A stretch of 64,000 nt of DNA from Candidatus Liptonbacteria bacterium (GCA_016204335.1 JACQKU010000014.1:4988-68987); one strand, 5' to 3'. Shown: positions 27,322 to 58,156, numbered from the stretch's first letter. Numbers and translations: made by a program. Notes: a model not told the origin generated them from the sequence alone.

Positions 27322-27609
27322 TTTTCCGGCAAACGCGGGACTTTTTCTTTCGGGAAGTTCTTAGAGATCTCATAAGAGCGGGGAATTTTTTTGTCGGAGG
27401 GCTGTCGGAACTCCGACGTGCTTGGTTTTTTACCGCTATGCCGCGGCATAGTGCCATGAGACATCGGAGCGATCGGCAATAAAAAATTTCTCTGCCTGCC
27501 GCCTGTCTGCCGGCAGGCAGGGCATGCAGGCGCCGGAGAAATTTTATCGCGGTTCCCGAAAGGAAAATATCCGGAGCAAAAGTTATGCACAGTTTTTCTA
27601 AAAATCGCA

Positions 27610-27868
27610 AAATCTATTTGCTATAATTTCCAGCAAGGGAGAAATAAAAATGAAATTCTTATTTCGACCGAACAAAGATTTGAAATTTTAACGAGGTTTC
27701 GATTAGGCACGTTGGTCTTTTAAAAATTTTAAACTAAGACCGATAAAGGTCGGTAGCCCAACTAACATTTACTTTTTAAAATGGCAAAGAAAAAAGCGAA
27801 GAAAGGAGGAAAAAAGAGATAGAATTTGTTCTCTTCCCGCTCCGGCATATGCCGGAGCGGGTTTTTTT
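27610..27868 (+). ncRNA. candidate small RNA: -10-like TTGCTATAAT, two tiny K-rich ORFs, ending at a strong terminator
   Basis: Promoter-like TATAAT ~27620; hairpins GGTCTT..AAGACC and GACCGATAAAGGTCGG; terminator CCCGCTCCGGC-ATAT-GCCGGAGCGGG-TTTTTTT at 27836-27868. Confidence 0.3.
27836..27868 (+). terminator. strong Rho-independent terminator
   Basis: 11-bp GC stem, ATAT loop, 7 T. Confidence 0.7.
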
Positions 27869-27910
27869 ATTGCATTGGCAAATGATAGAAATTGTATTAT
27901 GCTGTTCAAT

Positions 27911-28246
27911 ATGCGAATTATCATTGAAGACGCGGGGCTTGAGGTGACGCCCGCCCTTAAGGCCTATATTTACGAGAAGCTCGGGGCGCTGGAGAAATTC
28001 GAGAAAAATAGAGAGGCGGAAATTTTCCTCGAGGTCTCACGGACGACCAAGCATCATCATAAAGGGATGGTATTCAGGGCGGAAGCGAATTTGAAAATCG
28101 GCGGGACAATGTTGCGGGCGGAAGCGAACGGAGAAGACATAAGAACGGCCATTGACGAAGTCAAAGACGAATTGAAAAGGGAAATTTCTCATTTCAAAGG
28201 AAAGGCGGCGGCAATGGCGCGGAGGAGCGGCCGCCGGGTAAAATGA
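27911..28246 (+). CDS. hpf: ribosome hibernation promoting factor (short HPF/RaiA)
   Basis: MRIIIEDAGLEVTPALKAYIYEKLGALEKF; followed by hairpin GAAATGTTG-CAGAGC-CAACATTTC. Confidence 0.8.
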   Translation: MRIIIEDAGLEVTPALKAYIYEKLGALEKFEKNREAEIFLEVSRTTKHHHKGMVFRAEANLKIGGTMLRAEANGEDIRTAIDEVKDELKREISHFKGKAAAMARRSGRRVK

Positions 28247-28372
28247 GAAATGTTGCAGAGCCAACATTTCTCTGTTTGGTTCGCTCGCCCGCAATGAAAA
28301 ATTATTCTCATTGCGTTGCTCGCTGCCAAATATGAAAAATGTCGCTCTCGCGGATAACAAAATTTTATCGCA

Positions 28373-31144
28373 ATGTCAATTTTAAAAACGATTTTCGGCG
28401 ATTCAAACGACCGATATATAAAATCTCTCAAGCCGGCAATCGATGAGATAAACGACCTTGAAGAAAAATTCAAGGAATTTTCCGATTCGGAACTGCGCGC
28501 TTTAACCGATGGATTCAAAAATCGCCTGAAAGAAGGCGAGACGCTTGACGACATATTGGTCGAGGCGTTTGCCGCGGTTCGGGAGGTTGCGAAGCGGACG
28601 CTTAGCCAGCGCCCGTTCGACGTTCAGTTAATGGGGGGCATTGTTCTTCATCGCGGCGCGGTTGCGGAAATGGTGACCGGCGAAGGAAAGACGCTCGCCG
28701 CCGTGGCGCCGGCGTATCTCAACGCGCTTGCCGGCGAAGGAGCGCATATCGTGACCGTGAATGAATATCTCGCACGTCGCGACGCCGTATGGATGGGCCA
28801 GATTTACCGCGCGCTCGGTTTGAGCGTTGCTTGTCTGGTGCCGAACGCCGCGTTCGCGTACGACCCTTCCTATACGCAGATTAACGCGGATGCAGACGCA
28901 GATAAACGCGGATATATCAGCGAAAATCAGCGTGAAAATTTGCGAGAATCCGCGCTGTTGGATCGAGAACGCGATTCAACGGGAGGTTTTTTGATACAAC
29001 AGGAATTTTTGCGGCCCGTTTCGAGGCGCGAAGCGTATTTGTCGGACATTGTCTACGGCACAAACCATGAATTCGGATTCGATTATCTTCGCGACAATCT
29101 CGCGTACTCGTTCGAAGACCAAGTCCAAAGCGCGCAGATTAACGCAGATATTGAAATTCACGCGGATCAACGCAGATATAATATCAGCGAAAATCCGCGT
29201 CTCGATCAGCGAAAATCCGCGCACTATTACGCCATCATCGACGAGGTTGACAGCATTCTTATCGATGAGGCAAGGACGCCGCTCATTATTTCCGCTCCGG
29301 ACGCGGAATCGAGCGAGTTCTATAAAACATTTTCAAGAATTGTGGAACGTCTCCAGCCGGAAGAGGACTACAAAGTCGATGAAAAATTCAGAACTGTGAG
29401 CATTAACGATTCCGGAATAGAAAAAGTGGAAAAAATAATCGGCATTCAGAATTTGTACGCTCCGGAAAATCTTCGCTTGGTTCATTTTCTCGAAGAGTGT
29501 CTGAAAGCGAAAACGCTTTTCCGGCGCGACAAGGACTATGTCGTGAAAAACGGAGAAGTGATTATCGTCGACGAGTTTACCGGCAGGATGTTGCAGGGAC
29601 GGAGATACAACGCCGGACTTCATCAGGCGATTGAGGCGAAAGAAGGCGTGTTCGTGAAAGAAGAATCGAGAACATACGCGAAAATTTCGATTCAGAATTA
29701 TTTCAGGATTTATAAAAAAATCGCGGGCATGACCGGCACCGCGCAAACGTCCGCCGAAGAGTTTCACAAAGTGTATAACCTTGAAGTCGTGAGCATTCCG
29801 ACGAACCGGAAGCTTGTTCGGGAGCAGCTGCCGGATGTGATTTATAAAACAGCGGGTGCGAAATGGGACGCGGTTGTGAAAGAAATCGAGGCGTTGCACC
29901 GGCGCGGCCAGCCGGTTTTGGTAGGCACAACTTCGATTGAAAAAAACGAGCGCGTGTCCGAAAAACTCCATCGCGCGGGAATACCTCACGAGGTTTTGAA
30001 CGCGAAGAATAACGAACACGAAGGCGCGATTATCGCGCAAGCGGGCCGGCCGAACGCCGTGACAGTCGCGACGAATATGGCGGGGCGCGGCGTTGACATT
30101 ATTTTGGGCGGGAATCCGCCTTCGCCCGGCGAAGCGGAGAAAATACGGGGATTGGGCGGATTGCATGTCATCGGCACCGAGCGGCATGAAGCGCGCCGGA
30201 TTGACAATCAGTTGCGAGGGAGGGCAGGCAGGCAAGGCGACCCGGGTTCGGCGCAATTTTTTCTGTCGCTTGAAGACGATTTGCTCCGGATTTTCGGCGG
30301 TGACAGAATTAAAAATATGATGGAGACATTCAACCTGCCGGAAGACCAGCCGATTCAGGCGAGTTTTCTTTCGAAAGTAATCGGCCAGGCGCAGGCGAAA
30401 GTGGAAGGATTCAATTTCGATTTGCGGAAACGGCTTCTCGAGTACGACGACGTGTTGAACAAACAGCGAACATCGATTTACAAGCGCAGGCAGGAAATTC
30501 TTGAAAGTATGAATCGCGAGGACGTGGTAAAATTCATTTTCGACGCATCAAGCGAGTATCTCAATGTCCTTGCGAGCGTAGCGAAGCAATCTCCGGAGAT
30601 CGCCGCGGCCGAAGGCCTCGCGATGACGAGGAAGGCTTTCGAGGAAGCGGGAATTGTGGACAAGAATCATCCCTACCCCGAAGACGATTCGCAGGAAAAT
30701 CTGATTGAATTGCTCCACGCGCGGAGCGGAGAAGCCGCGGCCGACCCGTTTTCGAGAAACCGGCTTTTAAGCATTCTCGACCTTCTCTGGATGAACCAGT
30801 TGGACGATTTGGAGGCATTGAGCGAGTCAGTGGGGCTTCGCGCGTACGGCCAAAAAGACCCGATTGTCGAATACCGGCACGAAGCCCGCCGTCTTTTCAA
30901 GGATTTCTGGAACAATTTCAACGGGTGGGTGTTTATGAACATTTTTAAATTAGCGACAAGCGACAAGCGACAAGCGACAAGTTCGCAAATTTCAACTCCT
31001 CCTGTATTGCATGTCGCTAATAGCCATGTCGCAAAAGTTGGCCGCAACGATCCCTGCCCGTGCGGAGCGGTGAACCCGGCAACTGACCAGATATACAAAT
31101 ATAAGAAATGCGGTTTAATCAATGCGTCATATCATAAAAAATAG
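28373..31144 (+). CDS. secA: preprotein translocase ATPase SecA with in-frame repeat insertions
   Basis: DEAD motor (MGGIVLHRGAVAEMVTGEGKT, DEVDSILIDEARTPLIIS), C-terminal zinc motif CPCGA. Two extra segments (~28860-28990 and ~29130-29230) come from related hairpin-forming DNA repeats. A (GCGACAA)x4 tract sits at 30953-30981. Confidence 0.95.
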   Translation: MSILKTIFGDSNDRYIKSLKPAIDEINDLEEKFKEFSDSELRALTDGFKNRLKEGETLDDILVEAFAAVREVAKRTLSQRPFDVQLMGGIVLHRGAVAEMVTGEGKTLAAVAPAYLNALAGEGAHIVTVNEYLARRDAVWMGQIYRALGLSVACLVPNAAFAYDPSYTQINADADADKRGYISENQRENLRESALLDRERDSTGGFLIQQEFLRPVSRREAYLSDIVYGTNHEFGFDYLRDNLAYSFEDQVQSAQINADIEIHADQRRYNISENPRLDQRKSAHYYAIIDEVDSILIDEARTPLIISAPDAESSEFYKTFSRIVERLQPEEDYKVDEKFRTVSINDSGIEKVEKIIGIQNLYAPENLRLVHFLEECLKAKTLFRRDKDYVVKNGEVIIVDEFTGRMLQGRRYNAGLHQAIEAKEGVFVKEESRTYAKISIQNYFRIYKKIAGMTGTAQTSAEEFHKVYNLEVVSIPTNRKLVREQLPDVIYKTAGAKWDAVVKEIEALHRRGQPVLVGTTSIEKNERVSEKLHRAGIPHEVLNAKNNEHEGAIIAQAGRPNAVTVATNMAGRGVDIILGGNPPSPGEAEKIRGLGGLHVIGTERHEARRIDNQLRGRAGRQGDPGSAQFFLSLEDDLLRIFGGDRIKNMMETFNLPEDQPIQASFLSKVIGQAQAKVEGFNFDLRKRLLEYDDVLNKQRTSIYKRRQEILESMNREDVVKFIFDASSEYLNVLASVAKQSPEIAAAEGLAMTRKAFEEAGIVDKNHPYPEDDSQENLIELLHARSGEAAADPFSRNRLLSILDLLWMNQLDDLEALSESVGLRAYGQKDPIVEYRHEARRLFKDFWNNFNGWVFMNIFKLATSDKRQATSSQISTPPVLHVANSHVAKVGRNDPCPCGAVNPATDQIYKYKKCGLINASYHKK

Positions 31145-31295
31145 AGCGAAGTCCGCCGTAGTTTTAACGAAGGAGGACGGAGCGAAAAAAGAGAGCGGAC
31201 AGCCGGTTAAGTACAAACACTGCCATGGGAAAAATCTTTGATATGCTAAAGAACGGAAGCGGAGCCCTGAGCGTAGTCGAAGGGCGGAAGCGGGA

Positions 31296-31321
31296 GGAAA
31301 TATAAGAAGTGCCATGGGAAA
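31296..31321 (+). repeat. 26-bp direct repeat GAAATATAAGAAGTGCCATGGGAAAT flanking the GNAT gene (copy 1)
   Basis: Second copy GAAATATAAGAAGTGTCACGGAAAAT at 31766-31791. Confidence 0.6.
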
Positions 31322-31775
31322 TAGAGATATGGTAATCAGATCGGCAACCAAGAGCGATTTCGATGCGTTATACAAATTGGGAGCAGAAACCCCTGAATTT
31401 AGAGTCAGTCGAAGCGGAGCGTGGATGGATCCGGATGAATTCATGTCCGCGATCGAAAATCCGTCAGGCACTTTTCTTTTGGCCGAATCCGAAGGAGGGG
31501 CGGCTGGATTCATTTACGCGAACCGACAAGATCCAGAACGGGGACCTAAAACAAAGGCAGCATGTCTTGTATATCTTGTAGTCAGACCGGAACATAGAAA
31601 ACAAAAAATCGGGCAGCAGTTGTGGGACGCGTGCCTCGGCGATTTGAAAAAACACATAGTAACCTATGTGTACGGATGGGCGAATGCGGAAAGCGACGGC
31701 AGTATGGTCGGTTTCTTGAAGAAAAACGGTTTTTCCGAAGGACATAAATACGCATGGATGGATAAAGAAATATAA
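31314..31775 (+). CDS. GNAT family N-acetyltransferase
   Basis: VVRPEHRKQKIGQQLW acetyl-CoA motif; 153 aa. Confidence 0.7.
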   Translation: MGNRDMVIRSATKSDFDALYKLGAETPEFRVSRSGAWMDPDEFMSAIENPSGTFLLAESEGGAAGFIYANRQDPERGPKTKAACLVYLVVRPEHRKQKIGQQLWDACLGDLKKHIVTYVYGWANAESDGSMVGFLKKNGFSEGHKYAWMDKEI

Positions 31776-31801
31776 GAAGTGTCACGGAAAATAAAAACTC
31801 T

Positions 31802-32776
31802 ATGAAACTCCTCATCGCGACATATCCGGTGCGCGCTTCCCATCCGCATTTTTTCAAGCCGGCTCATTTGAAGCAGATAAAGAGCATAACCAAAAACAAA
31901 GTGGAAGTGCGCGCAACGGCGGATAAGAAAAAAGCTGAACTGTATGCCAGAGACGCGGACATTATTGCCGGACATCCCGGCGATATCCCGCGACTTGTCG
32001 GCATAAGAAATATCAAGTGGGTGCAATCGTTTTCCGCCGGAGTTGATAAACTGCTTACGCCGGAAGTGATACGGTCGCCGATTGTCGTTACCAATGTTTC
32101 CGGCATTCACGCGACGCCGATTGCGGAACATGTCATCGGTTTTATGCTCACGTTCACGCGCAGATTCCGCGAAACGTGGCTGAATCAGACAAAACACATC
32201 TGGAAGCCGGACCAAACGGTTACCGAATTGAGGGGCAAAACGGTTCTAATCGCTGGACTGGGGAATATCGGCGGGGAAGTCGCGCGGCTTTCGCATTGCT
32301 TTGGGGCGCGTGTGATTGCGGTTTCTCGAAATGCACGAGCAAAACCCCTGTATGTCGACCTTCTCAAAACCGAAAAATATCTGGATTCTTTGCTTCCCGA
32401 AGCGGATTTTGTATGCATTTGCCTTCCGCACACCAAAGATACTCATCATCTTTTTGATATGAGTAAATTCAAACATATGAAGCGAACCGCCATCCTCATC
32501 AATATCGGTAGAGGCGGAATTATAAATGAAAAAGAGCTTGTCGCGGCGTTGAAGAAAAAGATTATCGGAGGCGCGGCGCTCGACGTGACGGAAGAAGAAC
32601 CGCTGTCCCCACGAAGCCCGTTGTGGGATATGGAAAACGTAATCATAACCCCGCATCATTCCGGCATGTCCGAAAAATATATGGACCGCGCGATTGCTCT
32701 TTTTTGCGGCAATCTCAAAAATTTCCTTGCCGGAAAGCCGCTTAAGAACATAGTGAATAAAAAATTGGGATACTAA
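31802..32776 (+). CDS. D-isomer specific 2-hydroxyacid dehydrogenase (PGDH/glyoxylate reductase-like)
   Basis: NAD fold GLGNIGGEVARL, catalytic region RGGIINEKELVAALKKKIIGGAALDV, HH near C-terminus. Confidence 0.8.
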   Translation: MKLLIATYPVRASHPHFFKPAHLKQIKSITKNKVEVRATADKKKAELYARDADIIAGHPGDIPRLVGIRNIKWVQSFSAGVDKLLTPEVIRSPIVVTNVSGIHATPIAEHVIGFMLTFTRRFRETWLNQTKHIWKPDQTVTELRGKTVLIAGLGNIGGEVARLSHCFGARVIAVSRNARAKPLYVDLLKTEKYLDSLLPEADFVCICLPHTKDTHHLFDMSKFKHMKRTAILINIGRGGIINEKELVAALKKKIIGGAALDVTEEEPLSPRSPLWDMENVIITPHHSGMSEKYMDRAIALFCGNLKNFLAGKPLKNIVNKKLGY

Positions 32777-32778
32777 TG

Positions 32779-32863
32779 GCTACGAAATACGAAAAAGTAC
32801 GAATATACGAAATTGAAACAAACAAGATTTTCGTATATTCGTAAGAAATTCGTATTTCGTAGC
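32779..32863 (+). repeat. MITE-like hairpin family 2 (GCTACGAAATACGAA..TACGAATATACGAAA / TTTCGTATATTCGTA..TTCGTATTTCGTAGC)
   Basis: ~34-bp inverted arms; related copies at 37790-37852 and 63246-63332. Confidence 0.75.
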
Positions 32864-32877
32864 TGGGCGAAGCGACT

Positions 32878-33705
32878 ATGAAACTAATCTGCTTAAACAT
32901 CTGGGGCGGGAAATTGTTCGAGCCGTTGGTTGAATTCATCAAGCGTTCCGCGGAAACCGCCGATATTTTTTGTTTTCAGGAAGTGTTTCAAACCCCAGGC
33001 GAACCGCTTTATGGCGAGCTTGCCAGCCCTGAGTTTATCGAAGGGACCGAGCCCAAGCCGCTTCCGAGCGGGGGACATGCCGATATGTTCGCGGTGTTCG
33101 AGAAAATTCTCCCTGATTTTCGGGGGTACTTTGCAAAAAATGAGGAAGGATGGGATTTTCACCAGCCAGTTTCGTTTCCCATTGCGCTCGGCCAGGCATC
33201 GTTCGTCAGAAATGCGTTGACGGTTCGCGCGCACCGGCAAATTTCCGTCTATGAAACGGCAAGCGGAAAAGTCGAAGAAAAATGGGAACGGCCCCGTGGT
33301 ATGCAATACCTTGAAATTGACGACGGCAAAGATATGCCACTCCGCATTTTTAACTTGCACGGTCTTCTTGACTCCGGACACAAACGAGATACGGAGAAAC
33401 GGCTCGCTCATTTCGAGCTCGCGCGGAAATATGTGGACGAAGCCGTGAGCCGAACTATTTTGTGCGGCGACTTTAACGCGTACCCCGATACGCGGAGCGT
33501 TGGGATGTTTGAGGAGAAAATGCGGAATCTTTTAAAAGAATACGGAATGCCGCGGACGCGGAACAGCAACTATGCCGATATGGAAAAGTACTCTGATTAT
33601 TGGGGAGACCATATTTTCGCAACTCCCGATATAAAAGTGAATAACTTCGCGGTTCTTGAAGATATTGTTTCCGACCATATGGCGCTGATGGTTGAGTTTT
33701 CCTGA
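32878..33705 (+). CDS. endonuclease/exonuclease/phosphatase (EEP) family protein
   Basis: MKLICLNIWGG..IFCFQEV N-terminal EEP signature; C-terminal SDH. Confidence 0.65.
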   Translation: MKLICLNIWGGKLFEPLVEFIKRSAETADIFCFQEVFQTPGEPLYGELASPEFIEGTEPKPLPSGGHADMFAVFEKILPDFRGYFAKNEEGWDFHQPVSFPIALGQASFVRNALTVRAHRQISVYETASGKVEEKWERPRGMQYLEIDDGKDMPLRIFNLHGLLDSGHKRDTEKRLAHFELARKYVDEAVSRTILCGDFNAYPDTRSVGMFEEKMRNLLKEYGMPRTRNSNYADMEKYSDYWGDHIFATPDIKVNNFAVLEDIVSDHMALMVEFS

Positions 33706-33849
33706 GCAAAACTAAAATCTCCATAAAAATACTTCACCCTCGACACGATGTGCCGAGGGTTTGGGGCTTGCCCGGCTCCGATGGAGCAGGGCGGTTGGCG
33801 GTGGGCGAGGTTGCATAGGGTTTTCTCCTTTCTGTTGCGGTGGTTGGGT

Positions 33850-34143: not shown

Positions 34144-34156
34144 ATTCCCTCCTTTA

Positions 34157-34384
34157 TCAAAGAAGTTCGAGAAGACTGTGAATGTTTTCCGGTGAAATCC
34201 GCGCTACTTCCACGGGGATGATATCCCCATTCGCGGTTGCCAACAGGAATGATCCACAGCGTTGGCATTGGAAGTACTTCTCTCCCGCTTGCTTCGCCAC
34301 AGGAAAAGACGCGGGGTCTATTTCCTGCAGGAATTGGGTTTCACAATCCGGGCACTCGAGCGGTTCCACGTCCTCGGATGTCAT
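34157..34384 (-). CDS. small zinc-ribbon protein (paralog 2), start at MTSEDV with GGAGGTG RBS
   Basis: CPDC..CQRCG; ORF-track N-terminal extension to 34519 looks non-coding. Confidence 0.4.
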   Translation of the reverse strand: MTSEDVEPLECPDCETQFLQEIDPASFPVAKQAGEKYFQCQRCGSFLLATANGDIIPVEVARISPENIHSLLELL

Positions 34385-34680
34385 CGGACACCTCCTTTTT
34401 TCAGCTTGGACCTTCTTATTCTCCTCCAGATTACCTTCTCTTCTTTTTCTTCTCTGTGCCTCAGTATCAAGCGCCGAACCCTTTGCGGAGGCATCCGGTA
34501 TCCTGCCATTTCGCTTCACCTCGCTTTCCGCTGTTATTTGATGTTATGTTGTACCACGAGCCATTCTATCTTTTGATACTTGTTAGCTCGGTCTGGGTTC
34601 TTAATAACAAAATTCATCGGCTTTGTCAAAAAAATAAAGGCGCTGTTCGATAACCCGGAAAAAGCGGAAGAATGAGTAAG

Positions 34681-34700
34681 CACTATGCCATGGCATAGTG
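34681..34700 (+). repeat. 20-bp perfect palindrome CACTATGCCATGGCATAGTG
   Basis: Member of the YTATGC..GCATAR palindrome family. Confidence 0.7.
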
Positions 34701-34796
34701 CCATGGCTTCCTTTAAAACAGTAGTTCCCGAACATCGGCAAAATAATAAGGGGTATTCTTTTAAAACAAAAAATCTATTAAAATGAAAGCAGAACG

Positions 34797-35438
34797 ATGA
34801 AGAAACTTTCTAAAAAAGAGTTTGAAAAACGAAGAAAAAAAGCGCTCGCTATAATCAAGGCGCTGAAAAAGCTTTTTCCGAATCCCAGAATCGCGCTGAA
34901 ATATCGGAATCCGTGGGAACTTTTTGTGTCCGTGGTGCTGTCGGCGCAGTGCACGGACAAGCAGGTGAACAAAGTCACCGCGCCGCTTTTCAGGAAGTAC
35001 AGAACATTGGGCGATTACGCGAAAGTCGGCGTCAAAGAGTTTCAAAAAGACATAAAGTCCACCGGGTTTTACCGCAACAAAGCGAAAAATATTCTGGCCG
35101 CGGCGAAAATGCTTAAACAAAAATTCCGCGGCAAAATCCCGCGCACTATGGAAGAGATGCTGACTTTGCCCGGCATCGGCAGAAAATCGGCGAACGTGAT
35201 TCTGGGCAATGTCTACGGCGTGGTTGAAGGAATTGCGGTTGACACCCATGTCCGCCGGCTTTCGAAAAAACTCGGGTTGACCGACCACGACGACCCGGCG
35301 AAAATCGAACGCGACCTTATGAAGCTGATTCCGCGGAAAGAATGGTTTCCAATTACGTATCGCCTTATCGATTACGGAAGAAAATATTGCGCGGCGCGAC
35401 CTCACGCTCATGAAAACTGCCCGTTATCGAGAATCTAA
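34797..35438 (+). CDS. nth: endonuclease III-like DNA glycosylase (HhH-GPD)
   Basis: LSAQCTDKQVN, HhH LPGIGRKSANVI, VDTHVRR; only two C-terminal Cys, so possibly no Fe-S cluster. Confidence 0.8.
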   Translation: MKKLSKKEFEKRRKKALAIIKALKKLFPNPRIALKYRNPWELFVSVVLSAQCTDKQVNKVTAPLFRKYRTLGDYAKVGVKEFQKDIKSTGFYRNKAKNILAAAKMLKQKFRGKIPRTMEEMLTLPGIGRKSANVILGNVYGVVEGIAVDTHVRRLSKKLGLTDHDDPAKIERDLMKLIPRKEWFPITYRLIDYGRKYCAARPHAHENCPLSRI

Positions 35439-36213: not shown

Positions 36214-36216
36214 TCA

Positions 36217-36807: not shown

Positions 36808-36861
36808 CGCGTGGTCAATTCAAGAAATTTGGTATACAATAGAAATTGACTTAACAAAAAA

Positions 36862-37772: not shown

Positions 37773-37858
37773 ATTGAGTAATCACTGATTATACAAATCC
37801 GCGCAAATATACGAAAATTTGTATATTACTTATTATTCGTATATTCGCGAATGCTCTT

Positions 37859-47573: not shown

Positions 47574-47701
47574 TTTTAACTATTCCTTAACCTACGACCT
47601 CTTCTCCGGCGCGCTTCCAACGTTTCATCATCCGCAAACTCTATCTCGCCGCCGGTGTGAAGGCCGCGGTCGAGGCGGATTATAAATGGTAGAATTGAAA
47701 A

Positions 47702-48457: not shown

Positions 48458-48499
48458 TTACAACATTCTGATATTCTGCAGAATATTAGAATGTTGTAA
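48456..48499 (+). promoter_or_regulatory. palindromic operator-like site TTACAACATTCTGATATTCTGCAGAATATTAGAATGTTGTAA upstream of arsR
   Basis: Near-perfect 36-44-bp palindrome; second copy at 48789-48824 overlapping the arsR stop. Confidence 0.5.
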
Positions 48500-48532
48500 T
48501 GTGATATACTTACTTACGATACAATCGATACA

Positions 48533-48799
48533 ATGAAAACCTCAAAGCAACTTGAACGGTATTTTAAGGGTGCGGCCAATCATTGGCGTATTTCCGTTTT
48601 GTTTCTTATTGAGAAAAACGAAGGAATTACTGTTCAGGGAATTACTTCAGCACTCGGCGGAAATTTCAAAACTATCTCCCAACATACGCGAGCATTGGTG
48701 CAGGCTGGCCTTTTGAATAAAAAGTATCGCGGCCAGGAAGTTATGCATTCGCTCTCTCCTTATGGAAAATCATTCGTCCGTTTCATGAAAACATTCTAA
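48533..48799 (+). CDS. ArsR/SmtB family winged-helix transcriptional regulator
   Basis: ISVLFLIEKNEGITVQGITSALGGNFKTISQHTRALVQAGLL. Confidence 0.6.
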   Translation: MKTSKQLERYFKGAANHWRISVLFLIEKNEGITVQGITSALGGNFKTISQHTRALVQAGLLNKKYRGQEVMHSLSPYGKSFVRFMKTF

Positions 48800-48824
48800 T
48801 ATTCTGCAGAATATCAGAATGTTT
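48789..48824 (+). promoter_or_regulatory. second copy of palindrome AAACATTCTAATATTCTGCAGAATATCAGAATGTTT
   Basis: See 48456-48499. Confidence 0.5.
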
Positions 48825-48856
48825 TATGTAAAGTGGCTTTTAGTTTAAGGATTTTT

Positions 48857-50919: not shown

Positions 50920-52347
50920 TTATTTTTTCGGTTTTATTATCGGGCCTTCTGGCGACTCTTCAATTTTAACTACACTTTCAACTTTAACCGTATCTTCAAC
51001 TATGAATCCTAAAGCATCTATTTCTTTTCTCAACTCATCTGCCTTAACAAACTGTTTAGAACCTCTGTATTTCTCCCGTTCATCGGCCAATTCCTTCACA
51101 TTCGGGGGAATTTCAGCTTCTTTCTCGGGCGTTAGGAATTTAATTCCGAGCGTATCGGCCATTTTATCTGCAAGTGGCTCAACGCCCTTATAGCCAACTA
51201 ACATATAAAAAACACCAAGAGAACCAGCCGTATTTAAATTATCATTCAAGTCTTCTCGAAAGGCGTCTTCATAATTTGTGTCAGAAACATATTGAAAAGG
51301 CTCATTGAATCTGTAATTGCTTAAACTCTCCAATCCCGATTTAGCCGCCTTGAGAGCGGTCATCGTGAAATTCATCTGCTTGCGGTAATTGGTGAGGAGC
51401 GTAAGGTACCGAAACGCCATTCCCGCGTCCGGCATCTCTTTCTCCAAATCTTTCAGCGTATAAAAATTCCCTTCGCTCTTTGCCATTTTTTTGCCGTCCA
51501 CCAATAGGTGTTCATTGTGTGACCAATGATTCACGAACGGTTTGTAAATCGGCTGGCTTTGGGCTATTTCGTTGGTGTGGTGCGGGAAAATAAGGTCGAC
51601 GCCGCCGGTGTGAATATCCGTCGGAGCGCCGCCGAAAGCGACTTTGTTAATGACGGAACATTCTATGTGCCAGCCCGGCCGGCCGTTGCCGAGTTCTTCG
51701 TCTTCCCAGAAAATATTTCCGTCCGACTCGTCCTGTTTTTTCCAAAGCGCGAAATCGCTCAGGTCTTCTTTTTTGTATTCGTCGACTTTCACGCGGGCGC
51801 CGACTTCCTTGCCTTCCAAAAAATCGGGGCCAACCAATCCGCCATAATCGCCGAATTTTTTCTGGTATGTTTCGATACTGAAATAAACGCCGTCGCCGGT
51901 TTTATACGCGTAGCCGAGTTTAATCAGTTTCTTTATAAAATCTTTTATTTCTTCGATTTTGTCGGATACGCGTATAAAAGTTATATTTTCTGAATCGGTC
52001 GGTATATTTACCGCTTCCAAATCTTTTTTAAATTCTTCAAAATATTTATCAGTATATTCACGGAGTTCTTTTGGCGTAGCTTTACTGCCATATTGTTCCA
52101 CGGAGCGCTTGATGGTTTTGTCGTCGACATCGGTTATGTTCATCACCCATCTTACTTTATAGCCGTTATATTGAAGGGCGCGCCGGAGGACATCGGCGAA
52201 AATATAACTCCGGAGATTGCCGATATGCGCGGTGTCGTAAACGGTGGGACCGCACGTATATAGATTCACGGAATTTCCGCCAGAAGGTTTAAACTCCTCA
52301 ATTTCCCGCGATAATGTGTTAAAAAGCCGAATAGACATAAGGTTCAT
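50920..52347 (-). CDS. cysS: cysteine--tRNA ligase
   Basis: HIGN (TAHIGNLRSY) and KMAKS motifs. Confidence 0.9.
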   Translation of the reverse strand: MNLMSIRLFNTLSREIEEFKPSGGNSVNLYTCGPTVYDTAHIGNLRSYIFADVLRRALQYNGYKVRWVMNITDVDDKTIKRSVEQYGSKATPKELREYTDKYFEEFKKDLEAVNIPTDSENITFIRVSDKIEEIKDFIKKLIKLGYAYKTGDGVYFSIETYQKKFGDYGGLVGPDFLEGKEVGARVKVDEYKKEDLSDFALWKKQDESDGNIFWEDEELGNGRPGWHIECSVINKVAFGGAPTDIHTGGVDLIFPHHTNEIAQSQPIYKPFVNHWSHNEHLLVDGKKMAKSEGNFYTLKDLEKEMPDAGMAFRYLTLLTNYRKQMNFTMTALKAAKSGLESLSNYRFNEPFQYVSDTNYEDAFREDLNDNLNTAGSLGVFYMLVGYKGVEPLADKMADTLGIKFLTPEKEAEIPPNVKELADEREKYRGSKQFVKADELRKEIDALGFIVEDTVKVESVVKIEESPEGPIIKPKK

Positions 52348-52457
52348 TATAGCGAAAATCGTTCTTCATTGAAAGAATGGAAATGGAATTGAGGATGATA
52401 AAAATTACTGCGGGACCTATGCATTGCGCATAAGTCCCGCGTCTACGGAATCGGCCA

Positions 52458-52769
52458 TCAACGGGCGCGCGCTACAGCCTCGTCCCGCCCGCCGCTGATG
52501 TCGATGAGATGCTCGACGGCCGTGATTGTTATTCGGCCGTCCCTCGAGTTTCCCGTGTGAGCCGCCCCCATTACGGCGGCAATGGCCCGGTTTACATCTC
52601 CGTCAGGGACGGTGATGTCTACCTGAACCATTGGGACATCCAAGTGCCAGTTCCAGCCCGCGATGTGGCGGACCTCACGCACCGTCACGCCGGAGAAACC
52701 CGCCACAGAGAGCGCTTCCAATACCTCGTTTAACTTACGTTGCTTGATTATCGCCTCTACATTCTTCAT
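52458..52769 (-). CDS. P-II-like family protein (GlnB-like fold)
   Basis: MKNVEAIIKQRKLNEVLEALSVAGFSGVTVREV pattern parallels GlnB; 103 aa. Confidence 0.45.
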   Translation of the reverse strand: MKNVEAIIKQRKLNEVLEALSVAGFSGVTVREVRHIAGWNWHLDVPMVQVDITVPDGDVNRAIAAVMGAAHTGNSRDGRITITAVEHLIDISGGRDEAVARAR

Positions 52770-52919
52770 CCTGTCCTCCTTGATGGGTTAACAGCATGCC
52801 ATCCATATTAAATTTTCGGCGAGAATACCTAACTCATTTGATATCACAAGTTTCCGGCGATGTCAAAAAAATCTGGCGGTCAATAGCATAAGTTTTCAGT
52901 TTGAATAAATTATCACGCG

Positions 52920-52949
52920 CCGGCCGCTATGCTATAGCATAGCGGCCGG
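52920..52949 (+). repeat. 30-bp perfect palindrome CCGGCCGCTATGCTATAGCATAGCGGCCGG
   Basis: Core GCTATGCTATAGCATAGC shared with 53044-53079 and 57643-57666. Confidence 0.8.
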
Positions 52950-53043
52950 AAATGTCGGAGCGAGAGGCAGGTTTCATAGATTTTTTCAGCAACGGAAACC
53001 GGTGTCTTTTTTGGAGAAGCTTTCGCAAGTCCAACCGGCTTGG

Positions 53044-53079
53044 CCTTCTGCCGCTATGCTATAGCATAGCGGCAGAAGG
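53044..53079 (+). repeat. 36-bp perfect palindrome CCTTCTGCCGCTATGCTATAGCATAGCGGCAGAAGG
   Basis: Same core, 125 bp from the previous copy. Confidence 0.8.
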
Positions 53080-53127
53080 CATTTTACTGCCAGTAATACT
53101 TATACAAACGGGGACCTCACGCGAAGT

Positions 53128-54048
53128 TCAGAGCCACCGTTTGCTCTTGAAAAAAATAAACATCGCGATGATAACGCCCGCCATAATGCCGAGCACAATC
53201 CAGAATCCGCCGGGATGGTTAACGAATGGAACGCCGTCCGCCCTGACGCTGAAAATTCCCGCTATCAGCATCAGTGGAAACGTTGAAAACGCCAGGATTG
53301 TAAACGTTTTCATAATCTCATTCGTTTTGACGTTCATAAGCTGATTATTGGTTGCTTCGAAATCGGCGACCGCTTCGCGGTACGAATCGAGCCGGTTGAG
53401 CAGTTTCAGATATTCGCCGAGCAAATCTGCAAGATACGCGCGACTCTGCGGCCCCCAGAAATTGACGCCGTTTTCAAGAAGCGAGTTGAAGAGATGCTGC
53501 TGAGGCCTCACAATCAGCTGGTATTCCGAGAGGTCGCGCTTGAGATAAGAAATTTTTTTCAGCAATTCTTTCTCTTTGTCGTTGAAAAGCTCGTTTGCGA
53601 CCGATTCCGTTTTTTCTTCGATATGATTGAGCTCGCGCTGATTGAAATTGATGAGGTGGCCTAAAAAATCGCGGGTCAGCTTCAAAGTGTTGTCCAACGT
53701 GTTTTTTTTGAATTCTTCGTCTTTGAGCGATTGTTTGAAATCGGAATATGCTTCGATGTCGTCATAGCGAACCGTAATGACTTCGTTTTTCGTTATCAAA
53801 AAATCGATTTCCGCCCGGCGCGAGACCTTTTCCTCGGAATCGTAGACCGGGGAATAATATACGAGATAAAGATATTCGCCGAATGATTCGACTTTCGCGC
53901 GGGCGGAGGATTCTTTCAGTTCTTCCATGATAATCGGATGGAAATTGAAATTTTCTTTCAGCCACGCAATGTCTTCGTCTTGCGGCCGGAAAATATCAAT
54001 CCACCGGACTTTTCCCTGCACAATATCCATTAGGATAATTATAAACAT
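53128..54048 (-). CDS. CorA-like divalent cation transporter (non-canonical GMN loop)
   Basis: Two C-terminal TM helices; IAGIFSVR where CorA normally has YGMNF. Confidence 0.65.
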   Translation of the reverse strand: MFIIILMDIVQGKVRWIDIFRPQDEDIAWLKENFNFHPIIMEELKESSARAKVESFGEYLYLVYYSPVYDSEEKVSRRAEIDFLITKNEVITVRYDDIEAYSDFKQSLKDEEFKKNTLDNTLKLTRDFLGHLINFNQRELNHIEEKTESVANELFNDKEKELLKKISYLKRDLSEYQLIVRPQQHLFNSLLENGVNFWGPQSRAYLADLLGEYLKLLNRLDSYREAVADFEATNNQLMNVKTNEIMKTFTILAFSTFPLMLIAGIFSVRADGVPFVNHPGGFWIVLGIMAGVIIAMFIFFKSKRWL

Positions 54049-54174
54049 ATCTCATTTTTTATTCCAGTAGCCGTCTTCTCTGCGGAGGAGATTTTCGGTT
54101 CGAGAGGGGCCGCCTAATCTTATCCAATGCGGAGCCCTTGCATTCCCGTTAATCTATCCTGTATAATTCCTGCC

Positions 54175-55269
54175 ATGCTTACGGACGATAAAAACGGCGT
54201 TTTGAGTTCGGTTCTGCTGCAAACTTTGAAAAGCGAACTTTCCGGAGTTCGTCTCCGCGAAGGCGAAGTTGTGGAAGCCGAGCTTTTGAGAAAAACGCCC
54301 CGGGCGATTTTTTTCGACATCGGAAAATTCGGCACGGGGATTCTCTATGGAGCCGAATTGCTGAACGCGAGGGAGATGACCAAAAAGCTGAATCCCGGCG
54401 AGCGCATACCGGCAAGAATCGAAAATATGGAAGGCGAAGGGGGATACGTCGAGCTTTCGCTGGCGGAAGCGGGGAAACAGCGGCTGTGGCAGCAGGTTCA
54501 GGAGCTTCAGGATGCCGGCGAAATTTTGAAAGTGAAAATAGGCGGAGCGAATGCCGGCGGTCTGATGACGGACCTCGCCGGACTCAAAGCGTTCCTGCCG
54601 GTTTCACAGCTTTCCGCGGAGCATTACCCGAAGGGAACGGAAGGCGACCCGCAGAAAAATCTTGAGGCGCTGAAAAAATTCGTCGGGCAGGAATTGAATG
54701 TCAAAATCATAGCGGTCAATCCGCGCGCGAATAAGCTCATAATTTCGGAGCGCGAGACGGTTGGGACGAATATCAAAGAACTTCTTGCCGCATACCAGGT
54801 CGGCCAGACCGTCGGCGGCGTGGTGTCGGGAATCGCCGATTTCGGAATTTTCGTCCGTTTCGTCGACAATCCGCAGATTGAGGGACTTGTGCATATTTCG
54901 GAGATAGATTACCGGCTGATAGAAAATCCGAAGGAAATCGTGAACCTCGACGAAGCCATACAAGTGAAGATTATTGATATCCGGGAAGGCCGGGTTTTTC
55001 TTTCAATGAAAGCGCTGAAAACGGACCCGTGGGAGAAAATTGCGGAACGGTATCATGCCGGACAGGAAATCATCGGCGCTGTCTATAAATTCAATCCGTT
55101 CGGCGCGGTCATCGATGTCGAAGGCGGAGTTCAGGGGTTGATTCACGTTTCCGAATTCGGCAGTATCGAGGAAATGAAAAAAACGCTTATCCTTAAGGAA
55201 TCCCATTCGTTTGTCATTGACTCGCTGAAGCCGGAAGAGCGGCGGATGATTTTGAAGTTGAAACGGTAG
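54175..55269 (+). CDS. rpsA: S1 RNA-binding domain protein (short ribosomal protein S1 homolog)
   Basis: Four S1 repeats; start at MLTDDKNG preferred over ORF-track 54127. Confidence 0.7.
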   Translation: MLTDDKNGVLSSVLLQTLKSELSGVRLREGEVVEAELLRKTPRAIFFDIGKFGTGILYGAELLNAREMTKKLNPGERIPARIENMEGEGGYVELSLAEAGKQRLWQQVQELQDAGEILKVKIGGANAGGLMTDLAGLKAFLPVSQLSAEHYPKGTEGDPQKNLEALKKFVGQELNVKIIAVNPRANKLIISERETVGTNIKELLAAYQVGQTVGGVVSGIADFGIFVRFVDNPQIEGLVHISEIDYRLIENPKEIVNLDEAIQVKIIDIREGRVFLSMKALKTDPWEKIAERYHAGQEIIGAVYKFNPFGAVIDVEGGVQGLIHVSEFGSIEEMKKTLILKESHSFVIDSLKPEERRMILKLKR

Positions 55270-55308
55270 ATTTCACTTTTTTTGTCAGATAATTTATTCT
55301 TAGCTTGC

Positions 55309-55328
55309 GCCGGACTAGCTCATTGGTA
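55309..55328 (+). repeat. 20-nt duplicate of the tRNA-Phe 5' end (GCCGGACTAGCTCATTGGTA)
   Basis: Identical to 55626-55645. Confidence 0.75.
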
Positions 55329-55389
55329 CCTGCCTGCCGGCAGGCAGGGAGCGCAATCCTGGAATAGAAAATGGGTTCCTATCTTGTGC

Positions 55390-55635
55390 ATGGAATATTT
55401 TGTTTATATAATTCGAAGCGGTAAGGATAACAGTAATTACACTGGTTTGACTGCGAATTTAGAACGAAGAGTTGCTGAACATAACAAAAGTGATACGAAA
55501 ACCACTCGTTCTAAAAAGCCATGGAGGTTAATATACTTTGAAAAGTACTCATCACGGATTGAAGCAAGAAAACGAGAAAAATATTTAAAAAGCGGCACTG
55601 GACGTGAACTAAGGAAACAACTACTGCCGGACTAG
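55390..55635 (+). CDS. GIY-YIG nuclease family protein (homing-endonuclease-like), AT-rich
   Basis: YFVYIIRSGKDNSNYTGLTANLERRVAEHN GIY-YIG motif; stop TAG lies inside the tRNA-Phe 5' end. Confidence 0.65.
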   Translation: MEYFVYIIRSGKDNSNYTGLTANLERRVAEHNKSDTKTTRSKKPWRLIYFEKYSSRIEARKREKYLKSGTGRELRKQLLPD

Positions 55636-55697
55636 CTCATTGGTAGAGCGCTACCCTGAAGAGGTAGGCGTACCCAGTTCGATTCTGGGGTCCGGCA
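55626..55697 (+). tRNA. tRNA-Phe (anticodon GAA)
   Basis: GCCGGAC-TA-GCTC-ATTGGTA-GAGC-G-CTACC-CTGAAGA-GGTAG-GCGT-ACCCAG-TTCGATT-CTGGG-GTCCGGC-A. Confidence 0.8.
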
Positions 55698-55975
55698 CAT
55701 ATTAGATTTTGTTCGCGCAATGCGCGCTACAAAATCTTCCCTGCCTGCCGGTAGGCGGGTATCCCGCCGCCGGCGGGACTGGGAAAATTTTTTCTGCTCA
55801 CTGGTGGAGCGAAAAGAATTTTCCTGCTTCCGAAACTGTGCAAAACTTATTTTGCTTTTTAGCGAAATAAATTTATTATTCGTATAATACTTCAGTATTG
55901 ATTTTTTTAGGCGATTCAGAATTGATTGTCCCTTTGGGGGAATAAAAGTTTCTCCGAGTTTCTCCAAACCGGGCA

Positions 55976-56239
55976 ATGAAGCCCAAAGAAAGGAAGGAGT
56001 ACCTTGACATGAAAAAGGGAATCCGAGAGTGGGAGTGTCCCGAGAAGTGCGGAAAACCCAGTAGCAACTGTAAGCATTACAACCTCCAATGGATGAATCA
56101 AGTTGACCCATTCCAATATTGTGGGGGTTGTGGGGTCAAGAGGCGAGCTTCAAGTCTTAAGAGAAGAAGCGACGGCAAAGATGTCTGCTCAGTGTGCTTT
56201 CGGGGAGGTCTGCTCTATCCGAGAAGAACGAGACCGTAG
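55976..56239 (+). CDS. hypothetical cysteine-rich small protein
   Basis: CPEKCG, CKHY, CGGCG, CSVC clusters; 87 aa. Confidence 0.3.
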   Translation: MKPKERKEYLDMKKGIREWECPEKCGKPSSNCKHYNLQWMNQVDPFQYCGGCGVKRRASSLKRRSDGKDVCSVCFRGGLLYPRRTRP

Positions 56240-56347
56240 TCCACGCCGCCATGGGAAACCATGAGCGGTGTGTGTATTTTAAAAGGGTATTTAACCGAAA
56301 CTTCGCGGACTAAAATCTTTTTGATAATTTGTGATACAATTTAATCG

Positions 56348-57355
56348 ATGAAACGAAAAAATGTCGTGACAATCGGCGGTGGCACGGGAAATTTTACGGT
56401 CCTGACGGCTCTAAAAAAATATCCGTTCAATTTGAACGCAATAGTGTCTATGGCGGACGACGGAGGCTCGAATGCAATGCTTCGCGACGAACTTGGCGTG
56501 CTCCCGCCGAGCGACATCTCGCAGTGCCTTGTGGCGCTTTCCGCTTCCGAAAAATGGATGCGGGAACTTATGAATTTCAAATTTCCGGGCGGCAGATTGC
56601 GCGGCCATCGCGTCGGCAATCTTTTTCTTTCTGCCCTTGAAATAATGAGCGGCAGTTTTGACGCGGCCGTGGAAAGGGTTTCGGAAATTCTCCGCATTGA
56701 AGGAAGGGTTATTCCCGTCACGCTCGAAAAAGTAAGATTGGCGGCGTATCTGAAAAACGGAACAATAATTCGCGGAGAGGACGGGATGGACGAAAAAATA
56801 TACGCCGCCGGCGCCGCCAATCTTAAAAAAATTTCTTTCCAGTCAAGAGCCCGGGCGAATCCGAAGGCGCTCCAAGCCATTCGGCATGCTGATTTTATCG
56901 TGATAGGCCCGGGGGACGTGTACACGAGCCTCGTACCGAATTTTCTTGTTTCCGGAATTCCGGACGCGATACGAAAAAGCCGGGCGAAGAAAATCTACAT
57001 CTGCAACCTGATGTCTAAAGCGGGACGCGCGGAAAAACTCGGCGTCGCCGATTTTGTGAACACGGTCGAATCGTATCTCGGCGCAAAATTTGATTACGTT
57101 GTTTACAATAACAGTCGGCCGCCGCCATCCTTGCTTGAAAAATATACTCGCAAAGGTGAGTCGTTGGTGAGATGGCATGGCGTTTCCGATTCTGACGCAT
57201 ATGGCAAGCGTTACATCGGCAGCGACCTCATAAACAGAACCGCTCCAAAACAGATTAAAGGAGACCTTTTGCAAAAGAGCAGGAGCTTAATCCGCCACGA
57301 CCCTTTGTGGCTCGGAAAACTGCTCGCGCGAGTTATTTCCTCCGGCCGAGAATGA
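56348..57355 (+). CDS. yvcK: gluconeogenesis factor / YvcK (UPF0052, CofD-like) family protein
   Basis: VVTIGGGTGNFTVLTAL, LPPSDISQCL. Confidence 0.8.
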   Translation: MKRKNVVTIGGGTGNFTVLTALKKYPFNLNAIVSMADDGGSNAMLRDELGVLPPSDISQCLVALSASEKWMRELMNFKFPGGRLRGHRVGNLFLSALEIMSGSFDAAVERVSEILRIEGRVIPVTLEKVRLAAYLKNGTIIRGEDGMDEKIYAAGAANLKKISFQSRARANPKALQAIRHADFIVIGPGDVYTSLVPNFLVSGIPDAIRKSRAKKIYICNLMSKAGRAEKLGVADFVNTVESYLGAKFDYVVYNNSRPPPSLLEKYTRKGESLVRWHGVSDSDAYGKRYIGSDLINRTAPKQIKGDLLQKSRSLIRHDPLWLGKLLARVISSGRE

Positions 57356-57397
57356 TCCCCACACTAAACGAGCACTGAGATTTTCACAAAAAGCTTT

Positions 57398-58156
57398 ATG
57401 AGAGCAAGTTTCAAATCCTTAAGCACGCGGTATAAATTTTCAAATCAACGTTATGGTGCTCGTTATAGTGTGGGGATAGATGAGGTGGGGCGGGGGGCTT
57501 TGGCCGGCCCGGTGACCGTTGCCGTGGCATGCATCCCGGACGATTTGCGTATCGAGAATCAGGGCTGGGGAAATTTGAAGGATTCAAAAAAACTTTCTCC
57601 GGCGCAAAGAAAGAAATGGTTTGCTTATTTCAGAAACCAGCCCGCGCTATGCTATAGCATAGCGCGCGTGTACCCGCGAGGCGTAGAGCGGTTGAATATT
57701 TCAAACGCCGCGAACCGAGCGGCTACGAAAGCGTGTAATAGGTTATTAAGGAAACGGGAAATTAAGAAATTCAGGATTTTTTTGGACGGCGGGCTTTATC
57801 TTGAAGATAAGAGCGAAAAAGTGCGAATACTTATGCGAAAGGGCGCGAAAAACTTTCGCAAAGATTCGCGTGTAAATTCGCGACATTTCGCTTCTACAAT
57901 TATCAAGGGCGACGAGAAAATCACCGCCATTGCAATCGCTTCCATCATCGCGAAAGTCGACAGGGACGGATATATGGAGCGGCTGTCGAAAAAACATCCA
58001 CGATACGGTTTCGAGATTCACAAGGGCTATGGGACAAAGAAACATTTTAGCGCGATCCGCCGGTACGGCCCCAGCAAAGCGCACAGGTTGACGTTTCTCT
58101 TAGATTTTCTTGAAAATCGTAAGCGGAAGCGAGACGATTTTTCTAGAAAATCTTAG
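57398..58156 (+). CDS. rnhB: ribonuclease HII
   Basis: GIDEVGRGALAGPV; contains perfect palindrome CGCGCTATGCTATAGCATAGCGCG at 57643-57666 within the coding sequence. Confidence 0.85.
   Translation: MRASFKSLSTRYKFSNQRYGARYSVGIDEVGRGALAGPVTVAVACIPDDLRIENQGWGNLKDSKKLSPAQRKKWFAYFRNQPALCYSIARVYPRGVERLNISNAANRAATKACNRLLRKREIKKFRIFLDGGLYLEDKSEKVRILMRKGAKNFRKDSRVNSRHFASTIIKGDEKITAIAIASIIAKVDRDGYMERLSKKHPRYGFEIHKGYGTKKHFSAIRRYGPSKAHRLTFLLDFLENRKRKRDDFSRKS

Follow-up and report, generated by a model that had tools for sequence, protein, structure and literature searches.

Palindromes of the window

We examined a stretch of 64,000 nucleotides (the window) from a metagenome-assembled genome (MAG) of Candidatus Liptonbacteria (GCA_016204335.1, JACQKU010000014.1:4988-68987), a member of the Candidate Phyla Radiation (CPR). 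The window carries a family of perfect palindromes built on the form CTATG-N6-CATAG, most of them between genes and one inside rnhB, which we propose to be the sites of a TrpR-like helix-turn-helix (HTH) protein. An initial annotation, made from the sequence alone, had listed five such palindromes. All five were recovered where it had placed them, with the correction that two extend one base further on each side (34680-34701, 22 bp; 53043-53080, 38 bp). The 18-bp core GCTATGCTATAGCATAGC is present three times, as annotated, with 0.00 expected from 100 shuffles of the window, and the copy attributed to the rnhB coding sequence does fall within the RNase HII gene (Table 1). For the short-arm form, which the annotation had proposed to compare with expectation as TATGC-N4-8-GCATA, the count with a spacing of N0-10 is 7 in the window against 0.35 in the shuffles. 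With up to one mismatch allowed, CTATG-N6-CATAG has 5 matches, all of them exact, where the shuffles give 0.49. Perfect palindromes of at least 20 bp number 8, with about 0.06 expected, and zero-loop palindromes predominate among the long hairpins of the window. The two copies between corA and the P-II-like gene are 127 bp apart from start to start, with a gap of 93 bp between the copies.

The spacing of the half-sites is strict. Among loci selected by the core, N6 accounts for 150 matches and each other spacing for 0-2. The bases that flank the core are R-G-Y and R-C-Y, and other centres (ACGCGT, ACATGT and others) co-occur with the core, often in tandem. An exact scan for the 18-mer in one genome per GTDB species (596 Gb) found it in 99 stretches, about 92 of which are from MAGs of Patescibacteria (CPR). 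The remaining 7 lie in unrelated taxa and fit chance, since about 9 chance matches were estimated for 596 Gb. The core-bearing MAGs belong to Wolfe-, Jorgensen-, Lipton-, Colwell-, Kaiser- and Brennerbacteria and Paceibacteria, or bear the labels 'Saccharibacteria' or 'bacterium'. In these genomes the density of the core is about 1 per 20-35 kb: the 64 kb of the window contain 3 copies, a contig of 222 kb contains 10, and about 600 kb of WY2.bin82 contain about 20. Neither the core nor the TrpR-like gene described below was found in the viral contigs of IMG/VR, and a phage origin was rejected on that account. A literature search returned no description of this sequence or of any TrpR-like operator in Patescibacteria.

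A TrpR-like gene between the palindromes

Where two cores lie 450-700 bp apart, they always enclose the same small open reading frame (ORF). The encoded HTH protein, of 123-150 amino acids (aa), matches the Pfam family Trp_repressor (PF01371; 27.8 bits, cutoff 27, E=2.8e-6), and most of the 120 listed homologues have a precomputed PF01371 assignment. These are named 'Trp family transcriptional regulator' (NCBI), YerC (some, at JGI) or hypothetical, and every homologue that bears a taxon label is from the CPR. Against the NCBIfam model TIGR02531 the score is 12.9 bits, far under the cutoff of 42.2, and we therefore regard the TrpR-like proteins as a separate CPR clade. The only convincing domain matches are to HTH families (Trp_repressor, HTH_28, GerE and HTH_38). 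No catalytic domain was matched; the transposase-related TnsD, IS630 and IS21 gave weak hits (E 0.06-0.11) on the HTH stretch, far under their cutoffs. The AlphaFold2 model of the monomer, with a predicted local distance difference test (pLDDT) value of 77, has four helices and a C-terminal beta-hairpin.

In profile searches of the PDB the YerC-type structure 3KOR was matched at E=0.0013, and residues 38-83 of TrpR at E of about 0.3-0.5. The profile alignment sets S-P-Q-T-I-S of the CPR proteins against S-T-A-T-I-S of 3KOR and residues ~78-83 of E. coli TrpR. The second position of this motif, which varies between P, S and L, aligns with Ile79/Ala80 of the E. coli protein. The operator specificity of TrpR is set at the N-terminus of its recognition helix E, by Ile79, Ala80 and Thr81.

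Two sets of loci were used to relate gene and palindrome. In the discovery set, fetched by the 18-mer alone, 14 loci contain the TrpR-like gene, and a palindrome stands on both sides in 11 of the 12 close homologues. The distance from the end of the upstream site to the ATG is mostly 2-45 nt, with four loci reaching up to about 150 nt, and 3-134 nt separate the stop from the downstream site. One paralogue has the ACATGT variant at both flanks instead of the core. The other set was unbiased with respect to the motif: metagenome loci were fetched by protein alignment alone, which gave 54 distinct genes flanked in both directions by 150 nt or more of sequence, and perfect palindromes of the family were scored in the 250 nt upstream. 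A family palindrome was present upstream of 45 of these genes, downstream of 47, on both sides of 44 and on neither side of 6. The variant is identical on the two sides in 42 of the 44 doubly flanked genes, and CTATG-ACATGT-CATAG is the second commonest variant at TrpR-like genes. Most of the genes scored as having none carry CTATG-N6-CATAG with a non-palindromic centre, for example AACCTT or CCCAGG. The constant feature is therefore a pair of half-sites at fixed spacing and not an obligate hairpin.

The window shares its site types with these genes. C-GCTATGCTATAGCATAGC-G stands in the window and, in identical form, upstream of the regulator gene of Liptonbacteria (L072, L104-L107), and the CCATGG and CCGCGG centres are likewise present at regulator genes. 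Thus CTATGCCATGGCATAG, as at 34680-34701, also lies downstream of the TrpR-like gene in L152, and the CCGCGG centre flanks the gene in L173, there with CTTTG..CAAAG half-sites. For the co-occurring dimeric regulator that the annotation had suggested seeking, these relatives supply a candidate in the TrpR-family HTH gene bracketed by the palindromes.

The upstream site also has a fixed relation to the promoter. The extended -10 motif TGnTAnnnT shows a sharp peak of offset at +5 nt past the end of the upstream site (35 cases), and of 46 promoters with this geometry 35 drive TrpR-like genes. The downstream copy lies 0-50 nt past the stop in most genes and has no adjoining -10 motif. We infer that the upstream site of 16-18 bp extends from about -37 to about -20 and so overlies the -35/spacer region, in a promoter that is independent of a -35 element. 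Such a position, 5 nt before an extended -10, is the classical one and implies autorepression. In the window no site has an extended -10 at the canonical 5-nt offset. The site at 52920, which precedes the start of the P-II gene by 151 nt, is followed on the minus strand by the extended -10-like motif TGATAATTT at 11 nt beyond the 16-mer, a spacing weaker than the 5 nt of the regulator genes.

A regulator gene of another family in the window has a similar layout. The gene at 48533-48799 (+) encodes an ArsR-family regulator of 88 aa (HTH_5, 23.2 bits against a cutoff of 22) and is bracketed by an identical 16-bp palindrome, ATATTCTGCAGAATAT, at 48471-48486 and 48799-48814. Both copies are embedded in longer near-palindromes (region 48459-48825), and the upstream copy is followed by the extended -10 TGTGATATACT, as at the TrpR-like genes of relatives. 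From this bracketing, an arrangement of operator, promoter, regulator and operator appears to be general in the genome.

Covariation of protein and site

The residue at position x of W-L-S-x-Q-T-I-S varies together with the half-site. Where x is P, CTATG is found in every SPQT gene with flanking sites; proteins with SSQT in the recognition helix are accompanied by CTGTG or CTTTG (8/8), and those with SLQT by GTTATG...CATAAC (4/4). The centre in turn varies with position x of the C-terminal arm Y-R-S-Y-x-E-R: arginine or lysine goes with AC(G/A)(C/T)GT or CCGCGG, and leucine with CTATAG or ATGCAT. These states of residue and site are scattered over several branches of the neighbour-joining tree, which indicates that the switches happened repeatedly. 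Moreover, because the bases of the half-site covary with residues of the HTH recognition helix, the data point to readout of duplex DNA.

Symmetric arms

Beyond the motif of 18-20 bp the arms differ between genomes, and in a subset they are perfectly complementary. Pairing of the arms continues at 0.6-0.8 per bp where 0.25 is expected, with palindromes of up to 40 bp, and directly past the first mismatch it stands at the random level (0.28). G-T pairs occur in the arms at chance frequency, without excess; the excess of A/C and G/T at the first mismatch is due to the Y/R degeneracy of the flank motif. Selection on the arms for an RNA hairpin was rejected, given the lack of a G-T excess and the end of pairing at the first mismatch. 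Arm length does not differ between operators placed before a -10 (22.5 bp) and sites placed after a stop codon (22.9 bp; p=0.66). The orthologous sites at corA in the window and in the related locus L183 have arms that differ at three positions, each difference being mirrored on the opposite arm, and core variants with two mismatches are mostly symmetric double changes.

We infer that the symmetry is kept by a process at the level of DNA, the most economical being arm-to-arm templated correction or template switching at the self-complementary core. Quasipalindrome correction is a known class of mutation, to which the proposed mechanism would belong. Selection for a cruciform or for a symmetric extended contact may also lie behind the symmetry.

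Solo sites and their conservation

Sites away from the regulator gene (solo sites) favour gene 3′ ends. Compared with expectations from intergenic length, 77 intergenic solo sites were observed between tandem genes (about 76 expected), 29 between convergent genes (about 17) and 12 between divergent genes (about 25), with a chi-square of about 15 at 2 degrees of freedom. All intergenic sites of the window lie downstream of a stop codon, and that at 34680-34701 sits between the convergent genes 34237-34653 (+) and 34761-35411 (-). As a whole, site neighbourhoods are diverse, with 57 neighbour clusters among 136. The sites of the window and the genes around them are collected in Table 1.

Table 1. 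Palindromes of the window, with associated genes.
Feature	Coordinates	Strand	Remarks
16-bp palindrome CTATGCCGCGGCATAG (CTATG-CCGCGG-CATAG)	27436-27451		Centre variant; 115 nt past murB stop
22-bp palindrome GCACTATGCCATGGCATAGTGC (GCA-CTATG-CCATGG-CATAG-TGC)	34680-34701		Centre variant
P-II-like gene	52458-52769	-	Pfam PF00543
30-bp perfect palindrome CCGGCC-GCTATGCTATAGCATAGC-GGCCGG	52920-52949		Main-type site (CTATG-CTATAG-CATAG); corA/P-II intergenic
38-bp perfect palindrome GCCTTCTGCC-GCTATGCTATAGCATAGC-GGCAGAAGGC	53043-53080		Main-type site; 48 nt downstream of corA stop
corA	53128-54048	-	Pfam PF01544
rnhB (RNase HII)	57398-58156	+	Pfam PF01351, 111.9 bits; identical NCBI protein named Candidatus Liptonbacteria RNase HII
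24-bp perfect palindrome CGC-GCTATGCTATAGCATAGC-GCG	57643-57666		Intragenic main-type site in rnhB; encodes ALCYSIAR
36-bp perfect palindrome AAAAACAGCGCCG-TGCTATAGCA-CGGCGCTGTTTTT after rplL	63731-63766		Canonical bidirectional intrinsic terminator
14-bp palindrome TATGACATGTCATA, ACATGT centre	63850-63863		Absent from initial annotation; outer bases imperfect (TTATG...CATAT)

The gene order RecR-DnaB-CysRS...CorA-S1-CofD-RNaseHII-NusB-RNaseIII-SMC-L10-L12 is shared by the window and L183, whose RNase HII proteins are 64% identical. L183 retains both the site downstream of corA (5555-5590) and the site in rnhB, with intergenic flanks that can no longer be aligned. In rnhB the same 20 nt stand at the same codons in L183 and also in L037, where aa identity of the protein is 46%. 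The encoded peptide corresponds to the conserved segment x-[IL]-x-[YF]-x-[VI]-A-R-V, and among the 120 closest RNase HII proteins LCYSI itself occurs in only 4. The copy replaces homologous codons and brings no change of length relative to E. coli or to 120 CPR homologues. An insertion into rnhB was rejected for want of any indel in this comparison, and the copy was thus built in situ, at a tolerant segment. Together, the two conserved positions and the absence of an insertion suggest that sites serve a function at specific locations, and they speak against a mobile element having simply inserted itself, which the annotation had named among its options.

Two further palindromes lie near the end of the window. 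The one at 63850-63863 is probably a weak or decayed site of the family. The terminator after rplL shares its central 10-mer TGCTATAGCA with the core; its half-site is CCGTG, which is neither CTATG nor CTGTG, and its palindromy is not kept in L183. It is possibly a member of the palindrome family.

A gene for a Cys-rich CPR protein of about 600 aa (TCQNCK... to ...YCESCYQSEVV), without a Pfam family, was found at L087 (202-2040), L088 (1518-3314), L177 and L165. It alone among recurrent genes, the regulator aside, is flanked by sites at both ends, and it often adjoins the TrpR-like gene. For this gene, 19 sites lie within 150 nt upstream of the start and 11 within 100 nt past the stop.

Proposed reading and its alternatives

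With a probability that we put at about 0.8, the palindromes are double-stranded DNA sites of an HTH protein of the TrpR/YerC family, conserved in Paceibacteria-type CPR and encoded outside the window. A dimer would read a site of 18-20 bp, R-CTATG-N6-CATAG-Y. The N-terminus of the recognition helix, W-L-S-[P/S/L]-Q-T-I-S, would contact the outer half-sites, and the basic C-terminal arm Y-R-S-Y-[L/R]-E-R-[S/G]-K the central hexamer. Binding to the site over its own promoter would give autorepression, with a second copy just past the stop of the gene. The solo sites would most likely be tight protein-DNA boundaries (a roadblock or insulator) or extra operators. A regulator of the W-L-S-P-Q-T / Y-L-E-R type in this genome would be expected to be bracketed by CGCTATGCTATAGCATAGCG. 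A common site of a dimeric DNA-binding regulator was the first option of the annotation, and the bracketing of the gene and the covariation of helix and half-site in relatives lend it support. For the methyltransferase or nuclease target that it also raised, the central hexamers are neither avoided nor enriched.

Several observations weigh against this assignment. A tblastn search of the window found no TrpR-like gene; with the regulator gene outside these 64 kb, the window copies are solo sites, and it is through homology that they are linked to a regulator in this genome. Three centre variants occur within the window, which calls for paralogous regulators or a relaxed reading of the centre. 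In Foldseek searches of the PDB the top 10 hits are all TrpR, with E. coli TrpR-operator complexes foremost; the scores are weak (template modelling score 0.36-0.46, E of about 0.1), as expected where the model of a monomer is compared with what would be an intertwined dimer. The search for conserved synteny or a regulon yielded nothing apart from the regulator's own gene and that of the Cys-rich protein. With so few conserved targets, and promoter geometry at only about 13% of all sites, a classical regulon is not demonstrated. Lastly, the sites are of a digital kind that is unusual for a transcription factor (157 exact matches, 20 with a single mismatch, 12 with two), and digital sites with perfectly palindromic, variable arms are more typical of repeat elements.

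Another possibility is a selfish system like REPIN-RAYT, with the palindromes as mini-elements that move or propagate themselves and the TrpR-like protein as their mobilising or maintenance factor. The gene does have its own repeat on both sides, the repeat variant co-evolves with the protein, and there are tens of near-identical copies per genome at the density given above. Their locations are mostly not shared between genomes, as the neighbour clusters show, the extragenic sites have a 3′ bias, and synteny around the gene is variable. We nevertheless consider such a system unlikely. The protein consists of an HTH and a basic tail only and lacks HUH, DDE and recombinase domains; no insertion gave rise to the rnhB copy; and two positions are conserved across a divergence of about 64% aa identity. 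Moreover, viral contigs lack both core and gene, and the neighbours of the gene are housekeeping genes. A reading at the level of RNA, as terminators or 3′-stabilising hairpins whose conserved top is a favoured stem-loop and whose link to the TrpR-like gene is secondary, would account for the excess of solo sites between convergent genes, their deficit between divergent genes and the stop codon upstream of every intergenic window site. The predicted hairpins are highly stable (-28 to -39 kcal/mol, the latter for the RNA of the 53043 palindrome), the true terminators of the window at 27836 and 63731 are also perfect palindromes, and T-runs follow a few family sites (L110). Across 117 copies, however, there is no enrichment of T in the 16 nt past the core. 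The 4-nt loop is always palindromic, which RNA folding does not need, and half-sites are kept in variants with non-palindromic centres. Pairing ends abruptly with no imperfect continuation and with G-T pairs at chance level, arms are as long at operators upstream of a -10, where no hairpin RNA is expected, and base changes covary with residues of the recognition helix. We therefore judge an RNA-level role to be very unlikely. Canonical Rho-independent terminators were rejected as a class, there being no T-run enrichment, and in the window only 63731-63766 and 27836-27861 combine a stem-loop with a U-tract. Rfam at gathering thresholds gave only 4 tRNAs in the window, and a permissive scan of 52700-53200 gave nothing above threshold, only noise from miRNA hairpins.

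We also considered core sites of a tyrosine recombinase (dif- or lox-like), restriction-modification targets and DNA uptake sequences, all of which seem extremely improbable. Inverted arms around a 6-bp centre that is uniform within and variable between genomes do resemble recombinase core sites, and in 4 of 67 loci XerC/D-like genes are found close to the TrpR-like gene; yet there are tens of copies per genome and not one. CCGCGG, CCATGG and ACGCGT are classic type II palindromes, but their counts in the window are ordinary (38 against 31 expected, 9 against 7.9 and 17 against 21, respectively; CTATAG, 5 against 3.8), and a restriction-modification signature was rejected on these counts. In addition, the centre changes in concert with one residue of the HTH protein, and no recombinase or methyltransferase is consistently found beside its gene. 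DNA uptake sequences occur at about 1 per kb in Neisseria and Haemophilus, and a density of 1 per 20-35 kb is 20-30 times under that of known uptake sequences.

Within the reading as sites of a TrpR-like protein, a stronger proposal can be made for the solo sites. Dimer-DNA complexes at gene 3′ ends, and at both ends of the regulator's own gene, might form a genome-wide, protein-dependent boundary system in the CPR, acting as bidirectional roadblocks or insulators whose symmetry is maintained by arm-to-arm correction. We offer this tentatively and regard it as rather doubtful. If true, it would stand between DNA-bound termination of the mTERF type and a repeat-protein pair like REPIN-RAYT, a combination undescribed in bacteria.

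Comparison with known systems

The logic of protein and operator is classical; what is unusual are the digital sites, their dispersal at gene ends, the double bracketing and the symmetric evolution of the arms. E. coli TrpR (trpO, aroH, trpR) is likewise a small HTH protein of PF01371, all-helical as the CPR proteins may be, and it autoregulates through an 18-bp palindromic operator that lies over its own promoter, as we propose for the CPR proteins. However, identity over the Foldseek-aligned residues is only about 22-28%, and the CPR proteins have additional conserved segments at the N-terminus (SR-EWE-ACW) and at the basic C-terminus (YRSYLERSKKERKK...RTKYGTIY). The CPR half-site is CTATG with a 6-bp centre that would itself be read, and tens of near-perfect sites are found per genome of about 1 Mb, mostly at gene 3′ ends, with the gene bracketed on both sides. 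YerC/YecD (PDB 3KOR, S. aureus) are also small TrpR-like proteins, and 3KOR is the best sequence match among solved structures; to our knowledge they have neither a known function nor a known operator.

With REPIN-RAYT the family shares a single-copy gene between its cognate dispersed extragenic palindromes, co-evolution of repeat and protein and a bias to gene 3′ ends. It differs in the lack of an HUH/Y1 domain, in perfect palindromes without the GTAG head and in at least one copy that arose in situ within a gene. The chromosome-organising systems MatP-matS, SlmA-SBS and Noc-NBS offer another parallel, with tens of palindromes of 12-16 bp per genome in intergenic and coding DNA, bound by a dimer, as would be the case here, and without a conserved regulon. 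Their protein folds are different, and we know of no bracketing of the matP, slmA or noc genes by their own sites and of no variable symmetric arms at those sites. Sites of CRP (TGTGA-N6-TCACA) have the same 5-bp inverted half-sites at 6-bp spacing and a dimeric HTH reader. CRP belongs to an unrelated protein family, and the 6-bp centre in the CPR sites is specific and usually palindromic.

Gene regulation in the CPR/Patescibacteria is nearly unexplored, and most of these organisms are uncultured. Here a concrete pair of putative regulator and operator, widespread in Paceibacteria, can be put forward. It would include a natural specificity code, in which P, S or L of the recognition helix corresponds to the third half-site base, and Arg or Leu of the basic arm to the central hexamer. 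Copies of the palindrome in thousands of MAGs thereby become annotatable. Moreover, sites that are either perfect or absent, with arms that co-evolve, bear on the origin and upkeep of palindromes in reduced genomes.

Other features of the window and its relatives

A second conserved family of perfect palindromes, cctgCCTGCCGGCAGGcagg, unrelated to the CTATG family, occurs in the window at 27492-27522 and 55329-55348 and in several MAGs of the CPR (loci L007, L019, L022, L071 and L173). At 55310-55329 of the window, GCCGGACTAGCTCATTGGTA is a copy of the 5′ half of tRNA-Phe and is followed by a 20-bp palindrome, CCTGCCTGCCGGCAGGCAGG. An ORF at about 55390-55635 (MEYFVYIIRSGKDNSNYTGL...), GIY-YIG-like by eye, precedes the intact tRNA-Phe at 55626-55698. 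The region 55310-55698 has the appearance of a mobile GIY-YIG insertion, by which a portion of the tRNA gene was duplicated.

Between murB and the gene for a ribosome hibernation factor lie 550 bp without a long ORF (27322-27874) and without an Rfam match. They contain a family site, a CTGCC palindrome and a Lys-rich ORF of 13 codons at 27781-27822 (MAKKKAKKGGKKR). A perfect-palindrome terminator with a T7 run follows at 27836-27868. In locus L169, a perfect palindrome of 60 bp, AAGATATAAAAAAACAATCCCCCGCGTAAATTTACGCGGGGGATTGTTTTTTTATATCTT, with A/T runs at both ends, lies about 186 nt upstream of the TrpR-like gene, from which very long loop-less palindromic terminators appear to be general in these genomes. 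The window also encodes, at 3589-3664, a tRNA-Ile with a UAU anticodon (ARAGORN), an uncommon bacterial way to read AUA.

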